Assembly (NCBI GenBank): GCA_051294905.1
Contig: CM119371.1
Location: 35,218,001 to 35,282,000 of the forward strand
Length of the DNA stretch: 64,000 nt
Direction of reading: 5' to 3'
Source of the DNA: Botryllus schlosseri
Lineage: Eukaryota
Shown: positions 28,028 through 59,205 of the stretch, piece by piece
Position numbering within the stretch: position 1 is the first letter of the stretch
How the letters are laid out: the number at the start of each line of letters is the position of its first letter
Notes under the pieces: generated by a model
The model's input: the letters and a program-made list of their open reading frames with translations, nothing else
Database searches by the model: none
What the model was told of the DNA's origin: nothing
Position numbers and translations under genes: made by a program

Positions 28028-28795
28028 CTTAGTAGTAATTGCTTGTATTATAGACTCGCCCAATCAATAATGCAATAATGATTATTGTATGGATATCTTT
28101 GCATGTATTAATGGTGCGATCCATTCGTCTTACCAATAACCCGAAAAAACTGCTGTAAAGTAAGCTTTAGTTATGCATGATTTAAGAATGCTAAATGTAG
28201 AATACCAGACTGAGGCTGGTTTTACTTACAAATTGGGCATGACGGCATTACCGAAGGATTTCTTGCACTGAATAATGATGTCATGGAACGGAACATTGTG
28301 CATGATGTTGCCACCAATTCTATACCTACCCTGGCTGGGATATAAGAGGCTAGTCAACTGTTCTATCCATTCCCTCTCAGTGTTATACAATTATTCGTAC
28401 GGTAATGTTATTTTTGAATAATAATAATACGTTCATACTAAAATGAACCCAAATATTTCTGGCTGACACTTGTCAGGGTTAGGGGTAATCTTCAGCTGAA
28501 GTTTCGTGTATTCGGGAAAGGCCGGTTATTCTTTCATATGTATACCTGGAGGCTGGAGTTGAGTTTTATCGAGATCTACAAAAGTAGGTTGTACCAACAG
28601 AATGAGTTTGTGTATACGTTGAGCCTATAAGCTCGTCTCGAACTTTCGAATGTCTTATGCCATTGATGCCATGATTATTTTGTGATGCTGATAGGCCTAT
28701 ACTATACGACAGTCGATGTATTATACAATTCTATAATGAAGTTCTGTATTACCTTCAAGAGTCTTTAAATACAATTTTTATTTATAGATCTTAAC

Positions 28796-29404
28796 ATGAC
28801 GTACAACTCCTCTTCGCAAGAAGACAGTCATCCATACGATGGGATATTATACGTTCTTTCGGACTCTGAACACTTTCTGTCCGAAAAGGAGGTACAGAAT
28901 TGTGTGGATTTAGATCCTCTGGCCGTGGAATTAAGATTAATGAAATCCTCAGAAGAAATGCGGGAGAAATTATTGGAAGTGAAACGCGCACACAGAGAAC
29001 TAATCTTTATGAATAAGGCAGCCGATATCTTGCGTTCCGAAGAGCTAAACGGCAAATTAAACTCGGTCGAACTGTTGTTGCAAGGTTTTGAGAGCTGTGT
29101 CGTGGAATCGCAGCATTTGCAGAACGCCTTGTCGAAACCATTCCTCGGTAATAATTTAAAAATAGAAAAAAAGTACCACGAAAGCGTTCAAAAGTTTCTA
29201 TTTGGTAGTGCGGACATGCTCCGTCGTTTTCAGTCTGTCGTAGATACGTTGCAGTGGCATAAAAAGGTTGACCTTTCTGGCGTTTCGGGGTCACTCCGTA
29301 AAATATCATCGGCCGTACAGGAATGCGAAAAGACATGGACTATTATCGATAAAGCGTTTACTCTTCTTAGAGAAAAGAGTGAGGAAGTGTTAAACGACAA
29401 CTGA
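28796..29404 (+). CDS. HAUS2: HAUS augmin-like complex subunit 2 (single coding exon, 202 aa)
   Basis: ELIFMNKAADIL...LQNALSKPFLGNNLKIEKKYH aligns by eye with human HAUS2 ELLKLEKDTADVV...[21 protein letters not shown]. Similar size and coiled-coil character. Confidence 0.75.
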   Translation: MTYNSSSQEDSHPYDGILYVLSDSEHFLSEKEVQNCVDLDPLAVELRLMKSSEEMREKLLEVKRAHRELIFMNKAADILRSEELNGKLNSVELLLQGFESCVVESQHLQNALSKPFLGNNLKIEKKYHESVQKFLFGSADMLRRFQSVVDTLQWHKKVDLSGVSGSLRKISSAVQECEKTWTIIDKAFTLLREKSEEVLNDN

Positions 29405-48700: not shown

Positions 48701-51700
48701 ACAAAAATAACATAGACGGTGGGTAATCCCTGAATTATTAGCGAAAAACTCAAATAACTTTGCTTTTACGGTTTGGAATTGCGTCAAATTTGTTATGCAT
48801 CGTTTTCGTAGATAAAATAACAATTTTTTTTTATATTTAATTCAAAATTTTCACATCTACCAGTTTGAGTCGAATTTGGTGGGCACCGTTTTAGGAAACC
48901 CATTAATTTAATCAGTGAATCCCTGGAATCTGTAGAAAAAGCTATTTTTAGCAACCCTAATGTACAACCAGAGGTAGGCTGGTCAGTAATTTAGCAGTTC
49001 GAGTCAGACTACTCACTGAAGGTTTCACATCTGTTAGCAATTTTCATTTTATCAGCTGTAAACAAGTCACAATGTTCCTAGTCACAAGTCAATCTCACTA
49101 TTATAGTTTTGACTTGAGTCAAGTCGAGTCATTTTCAATTCGCCATCGAGTCGAGCCCGAGTCCAAGTCATTGCGATGACTGCTCAGTTTTGAGTAAAAG
49201 CCTTGTTAAAACCACTTTTTATTTAGTGATATCGAATTGTTCGCATATAAAATATACTGATTTCCCCACTTTTAGCAGTTTTAGGTCACATTTTCAAGTA
49301 CCAGTAACAATAGGCAAAATACCAGCAGTGTGGTTACTTTACTATTCTTCGAAACTGCTATGAAATGTCGGTCTTGGCCGTCTGAGACTCGAGTCCTATG
49401 CAGATTGACTCGAGTCTAGTCATTTCCGTATTTTGTGAAAATGACTCGAGTCATTACAACCCTGTGAAATACCAATTATGTGGTGGCTTTACTATTCTTC
49501 GAAGTCACACTGAAATGTTTGTCTTGGCCGTCATAGTCTCGAGTCAATGAATTGATTTGAGTCATTACAAAAATCGAGTTGAGTCCTTAAAATTACAACC
49601 CTGGTCGAAGACGTCACATAAAACTTTCAAAAGCTCAACAGCTTTCATCTGAATTAAACTTCTAATCCGTGCACCTCTAATCTCGCAGGGTCGCAAGAAA
49701 CCCACGGCCAAAATCGAACGGCGCAAGCACGAGGCCCAGTACCAGCTGTCGCGTTGGACGCCGTGGGTGAAAGACGTCATGGAGCAGGCCGTCGAGGACA
49801 AGCTGGACCAGAAGGTGTTCCCGTTCTTGTCCGGACGCAGCAATGCCGGGGCTAGCGGCGGCGGGGTGAAAAGGCGAGTGTGCGCTCGTGGAAATTGAAA
49901 TTGTTTTGCGTTGTCTCGGTTTTTTTTTGCGATTTCAGCGTGAAAAAATGACAAGCACTATAACATTCAAAAAATAATGTAATGAGTGGAGATTTTTTTA
50001 CCTAAAAAACGCAAGATTTTGACCTAAAAAATCAAAATTTTGACATTGTTTTCACTTTCAAAATCTTATTTTGACTAAATTGGACCTAATGTATGCAAAT
50101 TAGGTGTTTTCCCGTATAATGTTAGATTTACACTAACCTTCTCCATTTCTGGTTGGAACTGTCTGTTCTTGCAAAGTAGTTTGGCCTGAAAAAAACGTTA
50201 TTGCCTCTAAAACCAACATGAAAGAAACTTAATTTTGACGAAATCTGGCCTTATGACGAATTCCCGTACTTACATTACTCATTATGTACAACGACAGATA
50301 CTTTTCCACAATCTCGCTTAGAAAGCGTTTGTCCCTATAAGTATATTGCCAGGAATGGAGAAAGAACGTTCAACAGCAGCAGTTGTTGGCTGACAACACT
50401 GAAGTTGTGCGTACACTGCTGGTGACACACCGTGTCGCTTCATTCTGGCAATGTTGTCTACATCACAATTTTTCATCATTCGCTTCTTGATATAAGAACC
50501 ACGCAATGCCCACGCAGTCTTGCTTCAGTTGGGATATTGCGGTACGTTGAGCATAACACCATGTCAACCCGTTCGTTTCATTTGAACGTTCGTGATTCAC
50601 AATGTGCAGACAATGGGCCGTCTACAACGGTAGGCCAATAAAGTAGGCTACAAGCTGTAAAATGTCAAATGATAAGTTCACCGACAGTGCAAAATCTAAC
50701 ATACAAATGCAGGCTGCATAAAAGTTTTAACTTTGTAAACAATTAATTTTGACATTTTTTGACCCCAACGCTACAATTTTGACCTAATTTTGACTTTTTT
50801 TGACATAATGAATCTCTTTCGTAGCTATAGAAATTCAATGTACAATTGAATAATCTATTCGTATTGAATGAAACCAAAAAATAATTTCATGTTGAAATTT
50901 CTTAAACAGCGCGCGGTACCACTGGCACGACCGCCCCACAGAGTACAAGTCCGGCCCGCGTCTCATCATCTTCATGATCGGCGGGGTCACCTGCAGCGAG
51001 ATGAGAAGCGCCTATGAGGTCACAAACCAGCTGCGCAGCGGCGGGGACAAATGGGAAGTGCTCATCGGTGAGTCGTCGTGTGATGATACGTGTGGTAGTG
51101 TTTTGCGATGATGATTTAGTCAGCACCCCGGTAGTGTTTTTCTAACAGAATCCCATATTTCGAAATGACACAAGAATGGTATGGGACCTAAATTTTTAAT
51201 ATGCAATTGAATAATATATTCATATTGAAATAAACCCACGTATTTTCGGCCGAGACTCGTCAGAGGTAATAGTCAGCAATTAGTTAAGAACTGGAATGAA
51301 CTTCATTTTGTCAAAAATTAGTTAAAAAAATTGTAGGATCCAATGAAAGCTAAAAAACGTGGACCTTGAGTCCGAATTTCAGAAAGATTGCTTCTTACAT
51401 CTTGAAGTTATGGGTGAATGAGAAATATTCTATAACAAGGGGTAAATTAGATCCTTGAACGCATCGTTAATCCAAATCCATGCCCATCTCTGACACTTGG
51501 TATTGGCTGCGATATTGCTGTTTGACTCTTTCTTGCTACGTAGTAGGTTTGCCTGTCTAGATCATAAGTCTTTCAGGATTCTGCGGTACCAGTACTTGGC
51601 GATGATGCATTTGTTACAAATTTAATGGCTCTCTCGCAATGGATAGCAATTGGCCACTCTTTCGCACACTCTTTCTATGCAAATAAAAGAAACGAAATTT

Positions 51701-53127
51701 CTTCTGGAACATGCATGAATAGTGTAATTGCCGATGCGTCAAAAGAGGTGCTCGAACTATTTAGCATTGCTGCACAAGTAGAAGTTCTTCCATACTGGTA
51801 AAAAGTAGCTCGTAGACACCCGATCGCGAAAAGGCACACATTGATGTCACTTTTGTATGCTGGCTAAAATCGTAGCACCTTTTTTTTCAGTACCGCCATT
51901 CCAGTATTGTTCGTGAAACATGTTCTAGATATTTCATCGATTGCACCTTGATCTAATATTGTAAGTTTGGTGCTTGGAAAGCCTACCCTGTCTCAATCAG
52001 CTAACGTCCCTAATTCCCCTGTTCGATTCACCAAGCAATACCAGACTTGTGCAAACTACTGGATTTTCAAAATGCCCAACCAAAACTATCAATTGTTTAA
52101 AAGACGCAACTAACTAAAATACAGCTAGTAACTGATAATATGAATTGCTGATTACGCATAAGAAATGTCGGGGATAAGTCGGCATTTCAAAAGGACAGGG
52201 TTCTGACCGCCAAACACCCCCCCCCCCTCTTGGCTACGCCACTGTTAGTAGTGAACTACTGATGACTCTGAGCTAGCAATGGCTACAAGAACGTCGCCCT
52301 ACAAAACACCGGTATCATGATTCATACCAAACGACGACTCTTGCTCTCTAGTTGTTGGTCACTAAATTCCTTTTGAAATGCGCACTAGAACTAGAACTAC
52401 TCACTTTTCAAATCAGCAACTAGCATTATTTAGAACTAGTCAAAAATTCAGTAGTTAGTTGATAGTGAACTATCTTCTTGCATCCTGATTTTAAATCACA
52501 AGACTGATAGTTGGAATGCCTACCCTGTCCCAGTTGGCTAACTTACCAAGCAAGACAGATGCACCTAAATCCTACGCACCGTGTGACACAAGTACTTACC
52601 CTCGCTAACCACATACTCTTTCTTTCATCACAATCCGCCGCTGGGATATCTGGTACGTTGCTGTGTGGCATTGTGATGTCATTCGTTACTTTCCGTATAC
52701 TCTCACCCTCACGTGCATGTCACACCGGTTTTATATTCACGGCGTGTGCAATTTTTCGCCTTTTTTGATATTTTATTTATGTGTGCGCTTCTGCATGCGA
52801 TATTTTTGCATGTCGTCTCTCACACGGGATATTCTGCACCTGCTCATGCAATCGTACTGTATTTAATTACATGACGGTCGTTCTTTTAAAATTGTGGGTC
52901 TAAATTTGTGTTCTGGATTATTAACATATGCAATATCGCATACTTGACGGTCGTTGTCGGTATTTTGGTCACATATGTAATATCACATACTTAACGTTCG
53001 TTGTCTGTATTTGGTGACATATATATCTCCGAATGCAGGCTCGAGCCACATCGTGAACCCATACAACTTCCTCGAAGACCTGCGCCTGTTGACTAGAGCC
53101 GTGCGGTACCATGTTCTCGATTCATAG
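30746..53127 (+). CDS. STXBP1: Munc18/unc-18/Rop (Sec1/Munc18 family), 14 coding exons, 596 aa: 30746-30823, 31623-31704, 33366-33521, 34867-34970, 35668-35816, 37746-37806, 38274-38428, 39835-39942, 40812-40944, 46341-46560, 47724-47836, 49689-49873, 50910-51067, 53039-53127
   Basis: All exons are phase-consistent and sum to 1791 nt. Hallmark peptides include [96 protein letters not shown] and WEVLIGSSHI. Confidence 0.97.
36342..37610 (-). mobile_element. Deleted pogo/Tigger-like Tc1-mariner element
   Basis: TIRs CCGTAAACCGGGGTAACTTTGGACA / TGTCCAAAGTTACCCCGGTATACGG. A minus-strand remnant, [17 protein letters not shown], resembles an HTH_psq domain. Confidence 0.75.
38608..39614. mobile_element. 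TAGGGCGATT-ended MITE family (with a Penelope-like insert)
   Basis: TAGGGCGATT...AATCGCCCTA ends. Homologous segments at 1-105, 33790-34085, 36027-36335 and 49995-50700. Confidence 0.65.
39977..40608. mobile_element. MITE family B with a family A fragment inside
   Basis: CAGGGTTGTAA...TTACAACCCTG, GACTCGAGTC repeats, family A left arm at 40140-40230. Confidence 0.8.
41065..41767. mobile_element. hAT MITE
   Basis: CAGGGCCGGCCAACC...GGTTGGCCGGCCCTG, 8-bp TSD TTCTACAA. Confidence 0.9.
41804..43646. mobile_element. Foldback-type element with long TIRs and an internal TTAGGG-containing minisatellite, interrupted by a hAT MITE
   Basis: 41804-42080 is inverted relative to 42255-42448 plus 43615-43646. 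Internal ~24-bp GGGATATTAGGGTTGGAG repeats. Confidence 0.7.
42449..43614. mobile_element. hAT MITE
   Basis: CAGAGGTCTCAAAC...GTTTGAGACCTCTG, 8-bp TSD ATCTAGAG. Confidence 0.9.
44334..45642. mobile_element. hAT MITE with a family A element nested at 44792-45301
   Basis: CAGTGTTGGG...CCCAACGCTG, TSD ATGCAGGG/GTGCAGGG. The inner element has a perfect TSD, ATGAGCAC. Confidence 0.85.
45683..46265. mobile_element. MITE family B
   Basis: Reverse-orientation homologue of 39977-40608. Confidence 0.8.
46688..48960. mobile_element. Family A-related MITEs (46688-47307, 48013-48423, ~48440-48960) and a SINE (~47330-47535, minus) in Munc18 introns
   Basis: Long inverted arms similar to family A. The SINE core GACCCGGCCGGGG...GCTGAGCGCC is shared with 60702-60979. 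Confidence 0.7.
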
Positions 53128-55958
53128 GCAGAAGAGAAAGGGACTGTTCAGTATTTCGTGACGATATACAGCGTTTAACATGCTCAGGATGGTAGTCAGC
53201 GTGATTTGTTAATAACTACTCCGTTTGATGTCGATGTGATGTATGTAGTTACACAGAAGATTATACAGACAGTTTACACAGTGTTGATTATGTTATTTTT
53301 GTGTATCTCTGTAAGCAACATACTGAGTATACTGATTTGTGAGCTGTTGGTGAGTCAATAATTCGAATCCGACTACAGTAATGATTGTAATGGTTCGATT
53401 TGAGTTGTGTGAAATGATTTTTTTGGAGTAACGGAAATACCAGGAGTAATATTTGATTACTTGGCTCGTGAGAATTCAAATGCACTGATTGTAATTTATA
53501 ATGTCCGCTGTGAATGTAGCAGAATAAAATATGGAAAATAAGTGTATATTTCCATTTTCCATGTAACCCGTCCTTTTCACGACTTTGGGGAGTCCTAAGA
53601 AGCTAAGTTTTTTTCTGTAGCCTATCTGTTTCTTGATACGCCATTATTTTGGCGATTTATCAATCTTCTCGATAACTGCAACAGATTGGACCGGCATTCT
53701 AAGTTTGCTTCAGCATCCTTATAAATAATTCATAACCATACATCCACTGATTTCAAAATTATGTCAGCATTCCGTTGCAAACATTCCATTATCCAGTAAT
53801 CCAATAATAATAGCTCGAAACTGTGGTGAAACCAACTAATCTTATGAAAACTGTTTAGCAAGCACCCATTCAAGGAACAAATAAAAGAGTTTGAATAATA
53901 ATTTAAACTCTGATGCCACAAATTCATTCAATGGTTTCGTGAAATTCAATACCATTTCAAATTCCAAATCACAATCCCCGTTGTATCAAGAATGGCAGAC
54001 ATAATTGTTTGTGATCATCCATGAACGTTTATTTACATTAACGTCGAATGCGTCTATTGTAGTACTAAATGGTATCATGTATTAGAACAGCTATCTTGTT
54101 GAAGTCGTGTATTATATCTAAATATATAATTACTTAGCTACTCTTTCTCGTCTGTTCGTCCCTATGTTTTGCACGCTTGTCTTAATGTTCTTCTGTATGC
54201 TCTCTTCATCCCGCTGATTGATCGATAAAAAGGAAATATTCATGTGATAATAACGTACTTCCATGAAAAGACACTGCATGCAGTTAATGCCCAGGTTTTA
54301 CAGATCTTTGAAGCTCGGAACTCTGTTATAGGTACCGCATTTCATGGCTGTACATTGTACAAGTTTTGCTATTTTCACGGTGAAGTTGTTTGTAGCAGTA
54401 CAATTATCAAATAATGTGTAAAATATATTGACGTATCGTGTAGATTTGAAGTTATTTCTCTGGCACTTGATGTCAGCTTATCGGCATATGTTGTTACTTG
54501 TATCTGTTCGAAGTTGAGACGAGTAGTAGAGGTTCCATCATGAGAAGGATAAAATAGATTGACTGGCGACAGGTTGTGAAGTAATTTCTACAGGATGTTC
54601 ACAGATTTAACAGAGTTTCAGGATAGTTGGTTGACCAGGTTTGAGACAGAAAGGTAACTGCGATGTCACTGTGTTCCAGACTCAGAAATTCAGAAGAATA
54701 GAGACAGAATGTTTGTCAGCCGTGTAAATCAACAACATAGATAGTAAAAATGCAATTGAGTGAAATGTGACATATAAAAAATGGTTATAAGTGAAAAGTG
54801 ATATACAAATATGCAAGATATAGAGACTGAGATATAACAAACTAGTTAAAACGGAGCCACTCAGATAAGTCACATATGCGTATTCGACCCGCCGCCTACG
54901 ACCACAATACAAGAACTCGGTATGGTACTTTTATATCTTAGTAAGTATTCCGCAACTAAACTTGTGTTGGCCTTTGACATTCCCGAGTCGCACACAATCT
55001 CAGAGTCTAACATGCAAATCACCAATATTCCTGGAAAATCTTACTTGTCTTATGTCAGCTTGCTTTGCACGCATAGTACGGCTTTCCATTTGTATTCACT
55101 TCCCACCTAACGTGCGCAAGGCGACTTTTGTCATTGCTTTTCTTGTCTTTTCACGCCAACAACCATATCCTTCAAATGCTTTTGTGGGAGGGGAAAATGT
55201 AAATGTCCACCAAGAAAATATCTGTATTTTGTTTTTGCCTGGTCCGTTAATTTCCACTTATTGCTCCTACTATTATGTTAGTCATGACTATGTCCGTAAG
55301 GACGCTTTTCTGGTCAATTTGTAGTGTCGAATGCCTAGCCCGTTCGTGTATCGAATTTCTTCGTGCTTATATTCTTTGCCTGATGTGATTTGTGTTGGAT
55401 TATTGGTCTTTAGTGTGCTATGAACTGGTCTATCTCGAAACTGACTGCTAGATGTAAAGGTCTGGGCTTACTAAACTGTACTTATTAGTATTTATCATGT
55501 CCCCTTACCATATGGAGGCCTATATTCTCGTTGTCTCCTATTAAAATCGAAGTGATGAAGGACACCATGCCCTATCTATGGAGCAATCGATCAGAACGCC
55601 CCGTTGACTCGAGTCAAGTTAAAAATTGATTGTTGATATCACGAATTGCTTTTTTGTCCATAATCATAATACTAGGGTTCAAGTGTTCTAAAAATAAGTC
55701 TATTTGTCTAGCAATCCACCATTTATAGTTAGAAAACTTTTATGTTGGAAGAAGTCTAGGTACCACCGAACAAATTACTGCGAAGAGAATTGAGAAGAAA
55801 CCACCTGCGGGCCGTACCATATACCGTAATCTATAAACAGAGGTTTTGTCAGCCAAATTGCTGATTGACCGTTCCTTGAACACACGAATTCACTGGTCCA
55901 TAGACAGACAAATAACTTTTCTCAATTCTATTTGTATAATCTTCCTTCGGCGAATTAG

Positions 55959-56038
55959 GATCGACTCACATCGCAAGGCCGGCGGATTTCCTCTGCGATC
56001 TTCAGAATCTGTCGTCCGAAGCGGACGGCTCCGATTGA
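55959..56038 (+). CDS. STXBP1: Alternative terminal exon 14b of Munc18 (GSTHIARPADFLCDLQNLSSEADGSD*)
   Basis: Pyrimidine tract and TAG acceptor, phase 1 matching the exon 13 donor. Paralogous to exon 14a and to human GSTHILTP..FL.DL. Confidence 0.9.
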
Positions 56039-56638
56039 CAATTAGCCCCACTGAAAGAAGGTATCCTGCGAAGAAGCTTGCGAAGACTATCGAAAAAGAA
56101 GAACGTAAGAGATATTAATGATAATATGGATGGTATATGGAAGATCCTAATTGCGGGATTGGTTATTCTCAGAAGTTGTCATAATCAGTGTCCCTGGTGC
56201 TGCTCGGGTAGAAGTCGAATTAACACCGTGAATTTCTATTGTATTAAAATTAGACGTAGCAATTTCCAAGACCTGTTAAAACTATTTCAACTGGCAGTCT
56301 GGAAAGTACTTAACTAAGCCGTTTGGAAATGTAGATTTGGGAGTGAGGTTCACATACTTCTAGCAGAACTGAGGCAAAACTACTAATGACCCCGCATATG
56401 GATTCAATCCTCGGAAATTTATTCAGTTACCGTGGCACGGGGGCTATTTCGTGCATTTCTTACGACAATTTTACTCGTAAAGTGTTGCAGACTTATCCCA
56501 ATACTGCTTATTTTTATAATCCAAAAATTTAAGTAGTGATTTTCAAGTAGCAGTGAAACGGGTTGAAAAATAATTCTAATTGATCAGAAATAGCGCTAGA
56601 ATACAATTGCCGTCAGTTAATCAAACACGTTTTTCCAG

Positions 56639-56758
56639 AAACCTCCAGCCACCGAGATGGAAAATGTCAGCGGTTCTAACAACAAGCAGGTCCCACTGCC
56701 GGCAGTGACAACACACGCCTCGCCAAGTGATATTGACCTGCAGTTTGAGAATGGGTAA
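56639..56758 (+). CDS. Putative readthrough-extension exon 15a (KPPATEMENVSGSNNKQVPLPAVTTHASPSDIDLQFENG*)
   Basis: TTTTTCCAG acceptor, phase 0, open only in the readthrough frame from the donor at 56105. Ends at TAA or at a GG|GTAAGT donor. Confidence 0.55.
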   Translation, partial: KPPATEMENVSGSNNKQVPLPAVTTHASPSDIDLQFENG

Positions 56759-56773
56759 GTTCCGCCTTTCCAG

Positions 56774-56860
56774 AGAAGAACTATCCACAATGTAACTGTC
56801 GATCCGACTGTCTGCAGCTCACAATCTTCTGGACAGGAAAACCCAGCTTTCAGTGACTGA
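56774..56860 (+). CDS. Putative readthrough-extension exon 15b (RRTIHNVTVDPTVCSSQSSGQENPAFSD*)
   Basis: CCTTTCCAG acceptor, phase 0, open in the readthrough frame. Confidence 0.5.
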   Translation, partial: RRTIHNVTVDPTVCSSQSSGQENPAFSD

Positions 56861-58930
56861 ACCGCGGCGCACCACCGCGTTTTCTACGACCTAACCTTGA
56901 CAAGCGTGATCAAACGAAAGGATTCTTTTACTTCATATGTTCAATCTAACTATGCGCACCAGAGCAATGTACTGACTTCACGTTATCGTTTAGTTTCTGT
57001 AGATTACAAGCTCATATACTTTAGTAGTCGTGTCTTTTCTGAGCTTTCTTGATTTAAGAGAGGAATTTCATTCCATTTTCGCCGTCTATAGAAAGTGACA
57101 AGTATGTAAATATCTATATATTCGTTATATGTGGCCTGCCTTGAATGTTTTTATGTTGTGTGAGCAATCGAACTGCATTGCACACCCAATACACTACCGT
57201 GGGTATTTACAAGTCCTGGTGCTCCTTAATGCTTGTAAATCGGCGCTGACTTTTGATGATGACTTCAATATCAGGTAGCCTATTCCCAAATATAATTTAA
57301 GCTTTCCAATACTATTTCTAGTTTAAAATCTTATTAACTTCGAATGCTAACTATTCTAGCTTACTCCTATTGCGACGCGTATTCTAGAGCGTGATTTTTT
57401 CTCCATGATTTCAATGTCGATTACAAAAATCGAATATGCTTTTACACCCGAAAAAGATGCTTAAAATGGAGGAATTCAGCTACTTATCGTCTGTATGATA
57501 ATTCCTGGACCTTATGATGTGCGATCTCGAAATAGCTACATCTTTGTTGGCAATCGACTATGCTGGCCACTTATGGCGATATCCCCGAGTCACGAAACTG
57601 ATATTTTGTGATATATCGATGTGAGTTTCAACGTATTTGATTAGAATCTATTGCAAATATTCAGAGTGTTTATCTTAGTGCAATTTAATTCTTTACTAAC
57701 CAAGAATATAAAGAATATCAAATTGTAGTGCACTGCTTCTTCTAAAAACTCATTATAGCAGCGGCACATCCACTGTTAGCTGGGTAATGGGCATGTGAGG
57801 TTTGATGTTCTTTTTGCGGAACCTAAATTGGTGAGGAGAAATGATGTGGTGGTGAACATCTTGACGAGGAATAAGAGTAGGCGAAAAAAAAACGTTTTTT
57901 CGAATGCAATGCACGTCAGAATAGATATGGGTCGGTAGTTGGTGACGGTAGCTTCGCGTGACAGTCAAACCATTCACAATTACGGGGGTGTATATTGACT
58001 AGTATTGTTAATGAGGTAGTATTTTTATGCACACCAAATGTCTAGTACTGATTACTGAGTATAGGCCTACGGTTTATTAGGGTTGCAGCTATCCCGCTGT
58101 GATCACTCGTCCATGATATTTCCCTATGTCTCGGATAAGAAACTACTTCTTGTGATGACTCGAGACTCTCGAGTCGAGAGTCGAGACTAGTATCGTATAA
58201 AAGTGTATGTAACACGTGTTAGGAGGAACATTAAGATGAGACTCTATACCCAACTACTACATAACGTTTATATAAACCGATTGCATTGAGCATATATCTG
58301 TTACGAAGAACTTCACCCAAGGCAACAGCTTCTCGAGATGAGTATACAATAGCCGATCACCAAGAGGAATCGTTAGCCACACTAAAACTAGAACTAAAAA
58401 AAAACGCCATAACTGACGCAAAATCTGCAGTTCGGATGTTCGGGCTGGTCTTCCGGGAGTAGGACTGGAAGAATGACCTATTCTTTAGTCACCACCACAG
58501 CAGTATTGTGAAAAAGTGAGTCATTCGGGAGTCGAGTCGGAAAATGACCTCTTTTTAGTCGACACAAGATTTTCCGTAAAAATTCTAGAATCGGCACTTT
58601 TCTGCTCCGGTAATTTGTATAAAGTGTCCTTGTTTCCGGATCCCAAAATATATGGTAACCCAGGTTTAAGGGGCACTTGGTGACGGGACGTGACAAACAT
58701 GCCTCTTGTTATCCGAACGCCTGAACTCAAAAAAGGTGCAGGGTGACAGCGATATTCCAAAAAGATTTGGAGCACAAAGTATTTGTTTACTGAATTCAGA
58801 CGTAAACCCGTCTTTTTAGTTTGTGGTGACCAGGCCACCGGTTTTAGGAAGTATAATTTGACACCCAGTTCAATTATACAAACACTTTACTCAAGGCTGA
58901 GATAATTTGCAGTAAAAGAGTGCACCCGCA

Positions 58931-59205
58931 TTAGGGCTCTTCAAAAATGTCTTTTTTTCTCAAATCGTACTGGCTACTTGATAAAATTGTTAGGAGGTTA
59001 CCTAATTTAAGCCTACACACAAAATTTGGTTGAATTCCAGCCAGTAACCGCTTTGCTACAGGAGAAGAAAGTTTCTATTTATTATATAAAAATGAATAAT
59101 AAAAAATTTGAAAATTTTCTGTTCACCCCATGAAAGTGTTAGGCTGTCTATAGAAACGATGCTCACCAAATTTGGTTCAATTCCAACCAGTGGAAGCGGA
59201 GTTAG
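58931..59205. mobile_element. Truncated family A MITE
   Basis: Near-identical to 3590-3850. Confidence 0.8.

Follow-up and report, generated by a model that had tools for sequence, protein, structure and literature searches.

The window analysed here is a stretch of 64,000 nucleotides of the Botryllus schlosseri genome. Its forward strand carries a Sec1/Munc18 gene extending from about 30.7 to 57.8 kb, seven of whose eight exon-sized ORFs match the Pfam Sec1 family (PF00995). Thirteen exons plus exon 14a align in order with the Styela clava STXBP1-like protein (tblastn, 53-92% identity), and the same exon order is found on the STXBP1 proteins of Ciona and Phallusia. A protein search with exon 13 yielded 35 proteins among 36 candidates. 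The best matches were from Styela clava, an ENA ORF, Ciona and Phallusia, the remainder being fish STXBP2 sequences; no insect protein appeared among the 35. The gene thus has the Sec1 domain and is closest to STXBP1, and on these sequence comparisons it is the ascidian STXBP1 orthologue within the Sec1/Munc18 family. Identity with the insect gene (mosquito Rop) was considered and is ruled out by the ascidian STXBP1 best matches and the lack of insect sequences among them. The original prediction had invoked the enrichment of stop-codon readthrough among Drosophila neuronal genes as a precedent; since the gene belongs to an ascidian and not to an insect, that precedent weighs less than was assumed. 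Just upstream of the first Munc18 exon (~30746) lies a 211-codon open frame resembling HAUS2 (augmin subunit 2; 28769-29401 of the window, + strand, Pfam E-value 2.5e-11).

The features under study belong to the 14b-type mRNA of this ascidian Munc18 (STXBP1) gene, of which they form the spliced 3′ end (Table 1). Transcript data were aligned to positions 50800-58300: the raw run X23, and the contig sets X1, X4 and X15 from other studies. All four were taken as RNA, and all are spliced when aligned. Exon 13 is joined to exon 14a (51066/7>53038/9) in X23 (2 reads) and X15, and to exon 14b (51066/7>55958/9) in X23 (2 reads), X1 and X4. Exons 14a and 14b are thereby shown to be two mutually exclusive terminal coding exons. 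Both open with Gly-Ser-(Ser/Thr)-His-Ile and then continue into different tails. Exon 14a has its own 3′UTR, reaching ~54300-54560, and its tail matches those of the Styela clava isoforms X1 and X2. Tails of the 14a type are found in the Styela isoforms and in Ciona X1, those of the 14b type in Ciona X2 and in Phallusia. Counted from the glycine, the Botryllus 14b tail has 26 residues, exactly as many as the 14b-type tail of Phallusia, and the annotated Ciona and Phallusia proteins stop at this end. The equal length argues that the 14b stop is old and not a recent nonsense change. The contig depth of 14b versus 14a, which is a poor measure of abundance, is 12.7 versus 6.8 in X1 and 116.6 versus 32.5 in X4. 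Within the 14b tail, a C>A difference at 56026 (Asp to Glu) is carried by 3 of 3 X23 reads and the X4 contig, is absent from the X1 and X15 contigs, and represents a polymorphism of the main ORF. Directly upstream of the 14a acceptor there is a 47-nt tandem repeat (2.1 copies, 52924-53022).

Table 1. Features at the 3′ end of the Botryllus Munc18 gene (positions in the window)
Feature	Position	Strand	Evidence and remarks
Exon 13	50909..51067 (start approximate)	+	Pfam Sec1, tblastn, RNA joints; phase-1 end ..VLI G/gtgagt
Exon 14a, alternative terminal coding exon	53039..53127	+	..LTRAVRYH..-type tail, TAG 53125-27
Exon 14b, coding part including stop TGA 56036-38	55959..56038	+	Sequence and RNA joints
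CAATTA directly after the stop	56039..56044	+	Matches stop-CARYYA; same as TMV hexamer
First piece of the putative extension, 22 codons, 3′ part of exon 14b	56039..56104	+	Donor used in 4/4 runs
Intron, 534 nt, GT..AG	56105..56638	+	Joint in 4/4 runs
Internal exon, 116 nt, 53% G+C	56639..56754	+	RNA joints; unique in genome
Intron, 63 nt, GT..AG	56755..56817	+	Joint 56753>56817 (cut +1) in 4/4 runs
Second acceptor of the original prediction (AG/A)	56772..56774	+	Inside the 63-nt intron; no use among the best 15 of 31 joints
Last exon	56818..57800 (3′ end approximate, from depth bins)	+	RNA joints

Downstream of the 14b stop, the reading frame stays open for 22 codons up to the donor AAC/GTAAGA at 56104/56105, as originally described, and the predicted junction 56104>56639 (GT..AG, skipping 534 nt) is present in all four RNA runs (two reads in X23, one contig each in X1, X4 and X15). 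This joint also confirms the predicted distance of 66 nt from the stop to the exon junction downstream of it. Depth is zero in 56322-56572 in X23, X1 and X4. A dispersed repeat makes up most of the 534-nt intron (~56190-56540), with at least 40 copies at 70-84% identity in the same genome. A further joint, 56753/4>56817/8, is again found in all four runs and removes a GT..AG intron of 63 nt. Both joints are united in a single X1 contig of 1795 nt, which consists of exon 13, exon 14b, 56639-56753 and 56817-57575. With both introns removed, the stop is located in the antepenultimate exon, followed by junctions at +66 and +182 nt.

The original prediction had supposed two alternative tails, reached through acceptors at 56639 and 56774. 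AG ends at 56638 and 56773 do exist and are followed by open frames of 39 and 28 codons, but no joint to 56774 is seen among the best 15 of the 31 RNA joints. Since the 63-nt intron joins both pieces, a single extension takes the place of the two tails, which are parts of one frame of 74 codons: 22 in exon 14b, 38 in the internal exon, one split Gly codon and 13 in the last exon. Retention of the 63-nt intron would end the frame at a TAA (56756-58). The internal exon is open across its length in the extension frame alone, and its ATG at 56657-59, also in frame, is the first one downstream of the stop. The frame ends at a TGA (56858-60) in the last exon, 40 nt past the last junction, and about 940 nt of 3′UTR follow. 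Neither AATAAA nor ATTAAA occurs in the 3′UTR of the 14b mRNA (56861-58300), and depth ends near 57800; the poly(A) signal is therefore non-canonical or located elsewhere. When the 495.5-Mb assembly, on whose contig 1 the window lies, was searched with the extension exons, neither a second copy nor a haplotig was found, and the intronic repeat alone recurred.

The stop and its context proved to be as predicted. TGA 56036-38 is followed by CAATTA, so that positions 56036-44 exhibit the stop-CARYYA consensus, with C at +4, given together with the contexts of tobacco mosaic virus (TMV) and of plant eRF1-1 in the available text of PMC5397192. The hexamer is identical to that of TMV. The TMV stop is UAG, in contrast to UGA here, and the present context belongs to a cellular chordate mRNA. 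The string TGACARYYA occurs 10 times on both strands of the window (5.8 expected), and we estimate that about 0.3-0.4% of TGAs match stop-CARYYA. The TGA is in the mRNA, since two spliced contigs keep it unchanged: X1 shows no difference in 14b, and X4 only that at 56026. At the stop itself the raw run X23 reaches a depth of only about 3 reads. No stable RNA structure was found after the stop, in either the spliced or the unspliced sequence (z +0.1 to +0.6). There is no match to a SECIS element, the 3′UTR hallmark of selenoproteins, or to any other Rfam family in 55000-59000 at E-values up to 1.

How often would such an open frame arise by chance? Among 12,227 intronic start positions, 1.6% are open for at least 74 codons, and of 24,589 sequences obtained by dinucleotide shuffling of the extension, 4.1% remain open. 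The chance probability of so long an open frame is thus about 2-4%. In their remaining two frames, the 222 nt contain 3 and 5 stops. Open stretches of comparable length are found nearby: no stop is met for 92 codons when the frame is continued unspliced into the intron, and beyond the second stop another 63 codons are open. The combination of a leaky context, two introns after the stop and an open frame is thus rare per gene, and we infer a chance expectation of about 0.1 genes per genome; when very many genes are scanned, look-alikes of this kind are nevertheless to be expected.

To gauge coding potential, a codon model was built from 28 intronless kinase ORFs found elsewhere in this genome (14,751 codons). 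Under it, frame 0 of the extension reaches 0.123 bits per codon and the two remaining frames 0.003 and 0.042; genuine coding windows give 0.109 ± 0.085 (n=146). Open frames in noncoding sequence that span at least 60 codons give -0.089 ± 0.094, and one of 200 reaches the score of the extension. The continuation into the intron yields -0.19, and the open frame behind the second stop -0.03. Much of this gap is due to composition, the extension having 49% G+C versus about 37% in the UTR. Compared with composition-matched open shuffles, the extension stands at z +1.3, a score reached by 9.6% of the shuffles; in the same test 20 of 28 true coding windows stand at z of at least 2, and five at 1.3 or below. 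Within the first 22 codons another frame scores better than frame 0. This stretch (56039..56104), polybasic in translation, is 64% purine, with repeated GAAGA/AAGAA words adjoining the donor, and may represent a splicing enhancer. Taken together, the coding potential of the extension is ambiguous. A model built from the Munc18 exons alone gave 0.064 for the extension and 0.06-0.75 for the exons, and was dropped as biased; the neighbouring HAUS2-like ORF scored -0.26 with it. The GC3 of Munc18 is 0.73, versus an average of 0.50 in the 28 kinase ORFs. Intronless kinase frames of this kind are clustered by the dozen on contig 3 (~16.1-21.7 Mb), which suggests a large tandem expansion; genome-wide there are 134 Pkinase matches, most of them without an internal stop.

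Homology searches returned no relative of the extension. No Pfam family matches the downstream frames. With the 14b tail, an X for the stop and the 22 following residues as query (48 residues) against longer proteins, none of 25 candidates matched at E-values up to 10, and the 38-residue exon gave no match among 1.84 billion representatives at E-values up to 0.001. Such protein searches have low power, because extensions of this kind are not annotated as proteins. A metagenome scan with the same 48 residues pointed to seven loci. The two that were inspected are continuous ORFs sharing only EGILRRSL, and we take all seven to be chance matches, the other five being assumed to be alike. Among the differences listed, the X1 and X4 contigs show none in the extension, too few for a synonymous/non-synonymous comparison.

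Genes with conserved readthrough in vertebrates resemble the present case in their TGA-C context, neuronal role, long disordered extension and intermediate coding score. The literature, surveyed by titles, holds no report of readthrough in Munc18, Rop or STXBP1, or in Ciona. Insect readthrough genes, as described in the available part of Jungreis et al. (2016, PMC5100048), share with it the TGA-C context, a neuronal gene, a long predicted extension of disordered type and an intermediate single-genome coding score. The insect set rests on comparative evidence, whereas a single genome is considered here, and the predicted extension crosses two introns, a feature that led those authors to prefer a splice variant. 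According to the same text, abundant readthrough is reported in insects and crustaceans only. Rop, Sec1, Munc18 and syntaxin are absent from its supplement, and "Rop" is absent from the main text of a 2026 Drosophila preprint (PMC13278127).

That the stop falls ahead of the terminal exon is nothing unusual in this gene family. In mammalian Munc18-1a, the stop is located in exon 19, and exon 20 serves as 3′UTR (available text of Meijer et al. 2015, PMC4583478). As in Munc18-1a/1b, two alternative C-terminal tails are produced by splicing in Botryllus, and one form stops in a non-terminal exon with the next exon as 3′UTR. Munc18-1 as described there differs in that the Botryllus tails lie on mutually exclusive duplicated exons, of which 14a has its own 3′ end, and in that the Botryllus stop is 66 nt from a junction and followed by two UTR introns and an open downstream frame.

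By analogy, the closest mechanistic precedent is the layout described for plant eRF1-1 in the available text of Nyiko et al. (PMC5397192). This 3′UTR, which couples readthrough to nonsense-mediated decay (RT-NMD), combines a stop-CARYYA context (TGACAATCA), an intron in the 3′UTR that provokes NMD, and a harmless next stop. Readthrough ribosomes are proposed to strip the junction complex, and the extension itself is neither conserved nor functional. The definition given there asks for an NMD-inducing 3′UTR element (either an intron whose distance from the stop exceeds 50 nt or a long UTR) and for a stop that lies in a readthrough context and is actually read through. In the Botryllus mRNA, all four runs show spliced junctions at +66 and +182 nt, and the stop stands in a predicted readthrough context. 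In both genes UGA is followed by CAAT(C/T)A, an intron located beyond +50 nt is spliced out, the following stop in frame has a position that should not trigger junction-dependent NMD, and the predicted extension has no recognisable domain. The eRF1-1 gene encodes a termination factor and the present one is an animal synaptic gene, so that no obvious feedback loop is apparent. Moreover, eRF1-1 as reported has one intron and a next stop just before the junction, versus two introns and a next stop after the last junction here. In the Botryllus layout the second stop is followed by a long UTR.

The architecture is real and unusual, and its sequence makes readthrough plausible. The likeliest single reading, which we place just short of an even chance, is nevertheless an ordinary spliced 3′UTR with coincidental features. 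Ribosomes would terminate at TGA 56036-38 to give the ordinary short-tailed Munc18, the two downstream exons would be 3′UTR, the 74-codon frame and the CAATTA context would be coincidences, and readthrough, if any, would be leakage at a low level with no selected role. The first 22 codons would look polybasic because of the purine-rich (GAA/AAG) sequence by the donor, which is typical of splicing enhancers. In favour of such a UTR, the stop position is shared with Phallusia, the annotated Ciona and Phallusia proteins end there, and both splicing and stop are seen in RNA. Chance open frames are not rare here, given the 4.1% of shuffles and the noncoding frames of 92 and 63 codons; the composition-controlled codon score reaches only z +1.3, and the first piece lacks a best frame 0. 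Neither structure after the stop nor a homologue of the extension was found in the searches above. A stop exon followed by a UTR exon is normal in mammalian Munc18-1 (PMC4583478, available text), and abundant readthrough was not found outside insects and crustaceans in the part of PMC5100048 available. Against it stands the coincidence of an exact stop-CARYYA match, two introns after the stop and a frame open into the last exon while the other two frames carry 3 and 5 stops. The codon score of the extension is also in the coding range, in contrast to the noncoding-like intron continuation and sequence after the second stop, and the 14b mRNA is not scarce in X1 and X4 despite a layout that would provoke NMD in vertebrates.

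It is also possible, if on the doubtful side, that the UGA is leaky and the 74-codon frame has been kept, readthrough being selected for a polybasic tail, for a role in an NMD circuit, or for both. The first of these roles, programmed readthrough yielding a functional extended Munc18 isoform, we regard as a rather unlikely candidate. A near-cognate tRNA would decode the UGA in a share of ribosomes, helped by CAAUUA. The 74 residues would form a polybasic Ser-containing segment, possibly an amphipathic helix, and a disordered tail rich in Ser, Asn, Pro and Gln, and the outcome would be a Munc18 with altered membrane binding or kinase regulation. This is consistent with the 74 codons being open across two RNA-confirmed junctions, with the internal exon (56639-56754, 53% G+C) where this frame alone is open, and with a coding-range score that drops to noncoding in the intron and after the second stop. 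The stop is ancient, which argues that the open frame is not a recently broken ORF. On the other side, the composition-controlled score is weak (z +1.3), the first 22 codons carry no frame-specific signal, no Pfam family matches, and titles in the literature revealed no report of readthrough in an SM protein. Functional readthrough known in chordates is rare, which also counts against a functional isoform. In its favour, finally, the context matches exactly the consensus given in PMC5397192 (available text).

The peptide itself would be unimportant in a 3′UTR of the eRF1-1 type, a reading which we consider unlikely. The stop would be kept leaky and the frame open past both junctions, so that occasional readthrough ribosomes strip the junction complexes and the 14b mRNA is spared NMD or tuned in level. 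At the level of sequence, all three features of Nyiko et al. (PMC5397192, as far as available) have a counterpart here: both introns are farther than 50 nt from the stop (junctions at +66 and +182 nt, 4/4 runs), the last exon contains the second stop 40 nt beyond its 5′ junction, and the context of eRF1-1, TGACAATCA, has its counterpart in TGACAATTA. In two of the four runs (X1, X4) the depth of the 14b mRNA equals or exceeds that of 14a, and weak codon bias and a preserved frame would be accounted for together. However, the available text of that paper lists junction-dependent NMD for vertebrates, plants and some fungi only, not for tunicates; the UTR of about 940 nt after the second stop could itself provoke NMD; and the prior is low, because a single such gene was found in Arabidopsis according to the same text. 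Some other route to the downstream frame is very unlikely, be it A-to-I editing of UGA to UGG, selenocysteine, initiation at ATG 56657, or an unseen splice form bringing 56639-56754 into frame. The ATG has G at both -3 and +4, low-level editing would be compatible with a raw depth of only about 3 reads at the stop, and the RNA evidence comprises the best 15 of 31 joints, with a further 67 base differences beyond those listed. Editing is opposed by the unchanged TGA in the X1 contig and by X4, where 56026 is the sole 14b difference, and selenocysteine by the lack of a SECIS or Rfam match (55000-59000, E-values up to 1). As to a splice form, exon 13 ends in phase 1, so that joining it directly to 56639 leads to a stop after 13 codons, and this joint is absent among the best 15 of 31.

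Neurotransmitter release requires Munc18/STXBP1, whose alternative C-termini are known to be functionally distinct. If true, a third tail made by readthrough, basic and phosphorylatable, would be a new mode of regulation of SM proteins. If instead readthrough clears the junctions, the logic of plant eRF1-1 would also work in the closest relatives of vertebrates, with a bearing on how mRNAs with 3′UTR introns escape decay; this would be the first natural readthrough/NMD circuit of the eRF1-1 kind in an animal, one that would control how much of a single splice isoform is present. Should the features be coincidental, the locus provides a calibrated example of how frequent look-alikes are. Because the architecture is now defined by RNA, the readthrough hypothesis is cheap to test.

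Two further observations concern repeated sequence in the window. In the intron after exon 13, RNA contig depth over 51051-51301 and 51804-52556 rises up to 619 (X4) and 790 (X15), with many irregular joints and loose ends, as for an expressed repeat family. At five + strand sites (29531, 44795, 46615, 47981 and 59096), ORF translations exhibit one common type of peptide, which is probably another repeated element spread through introns.
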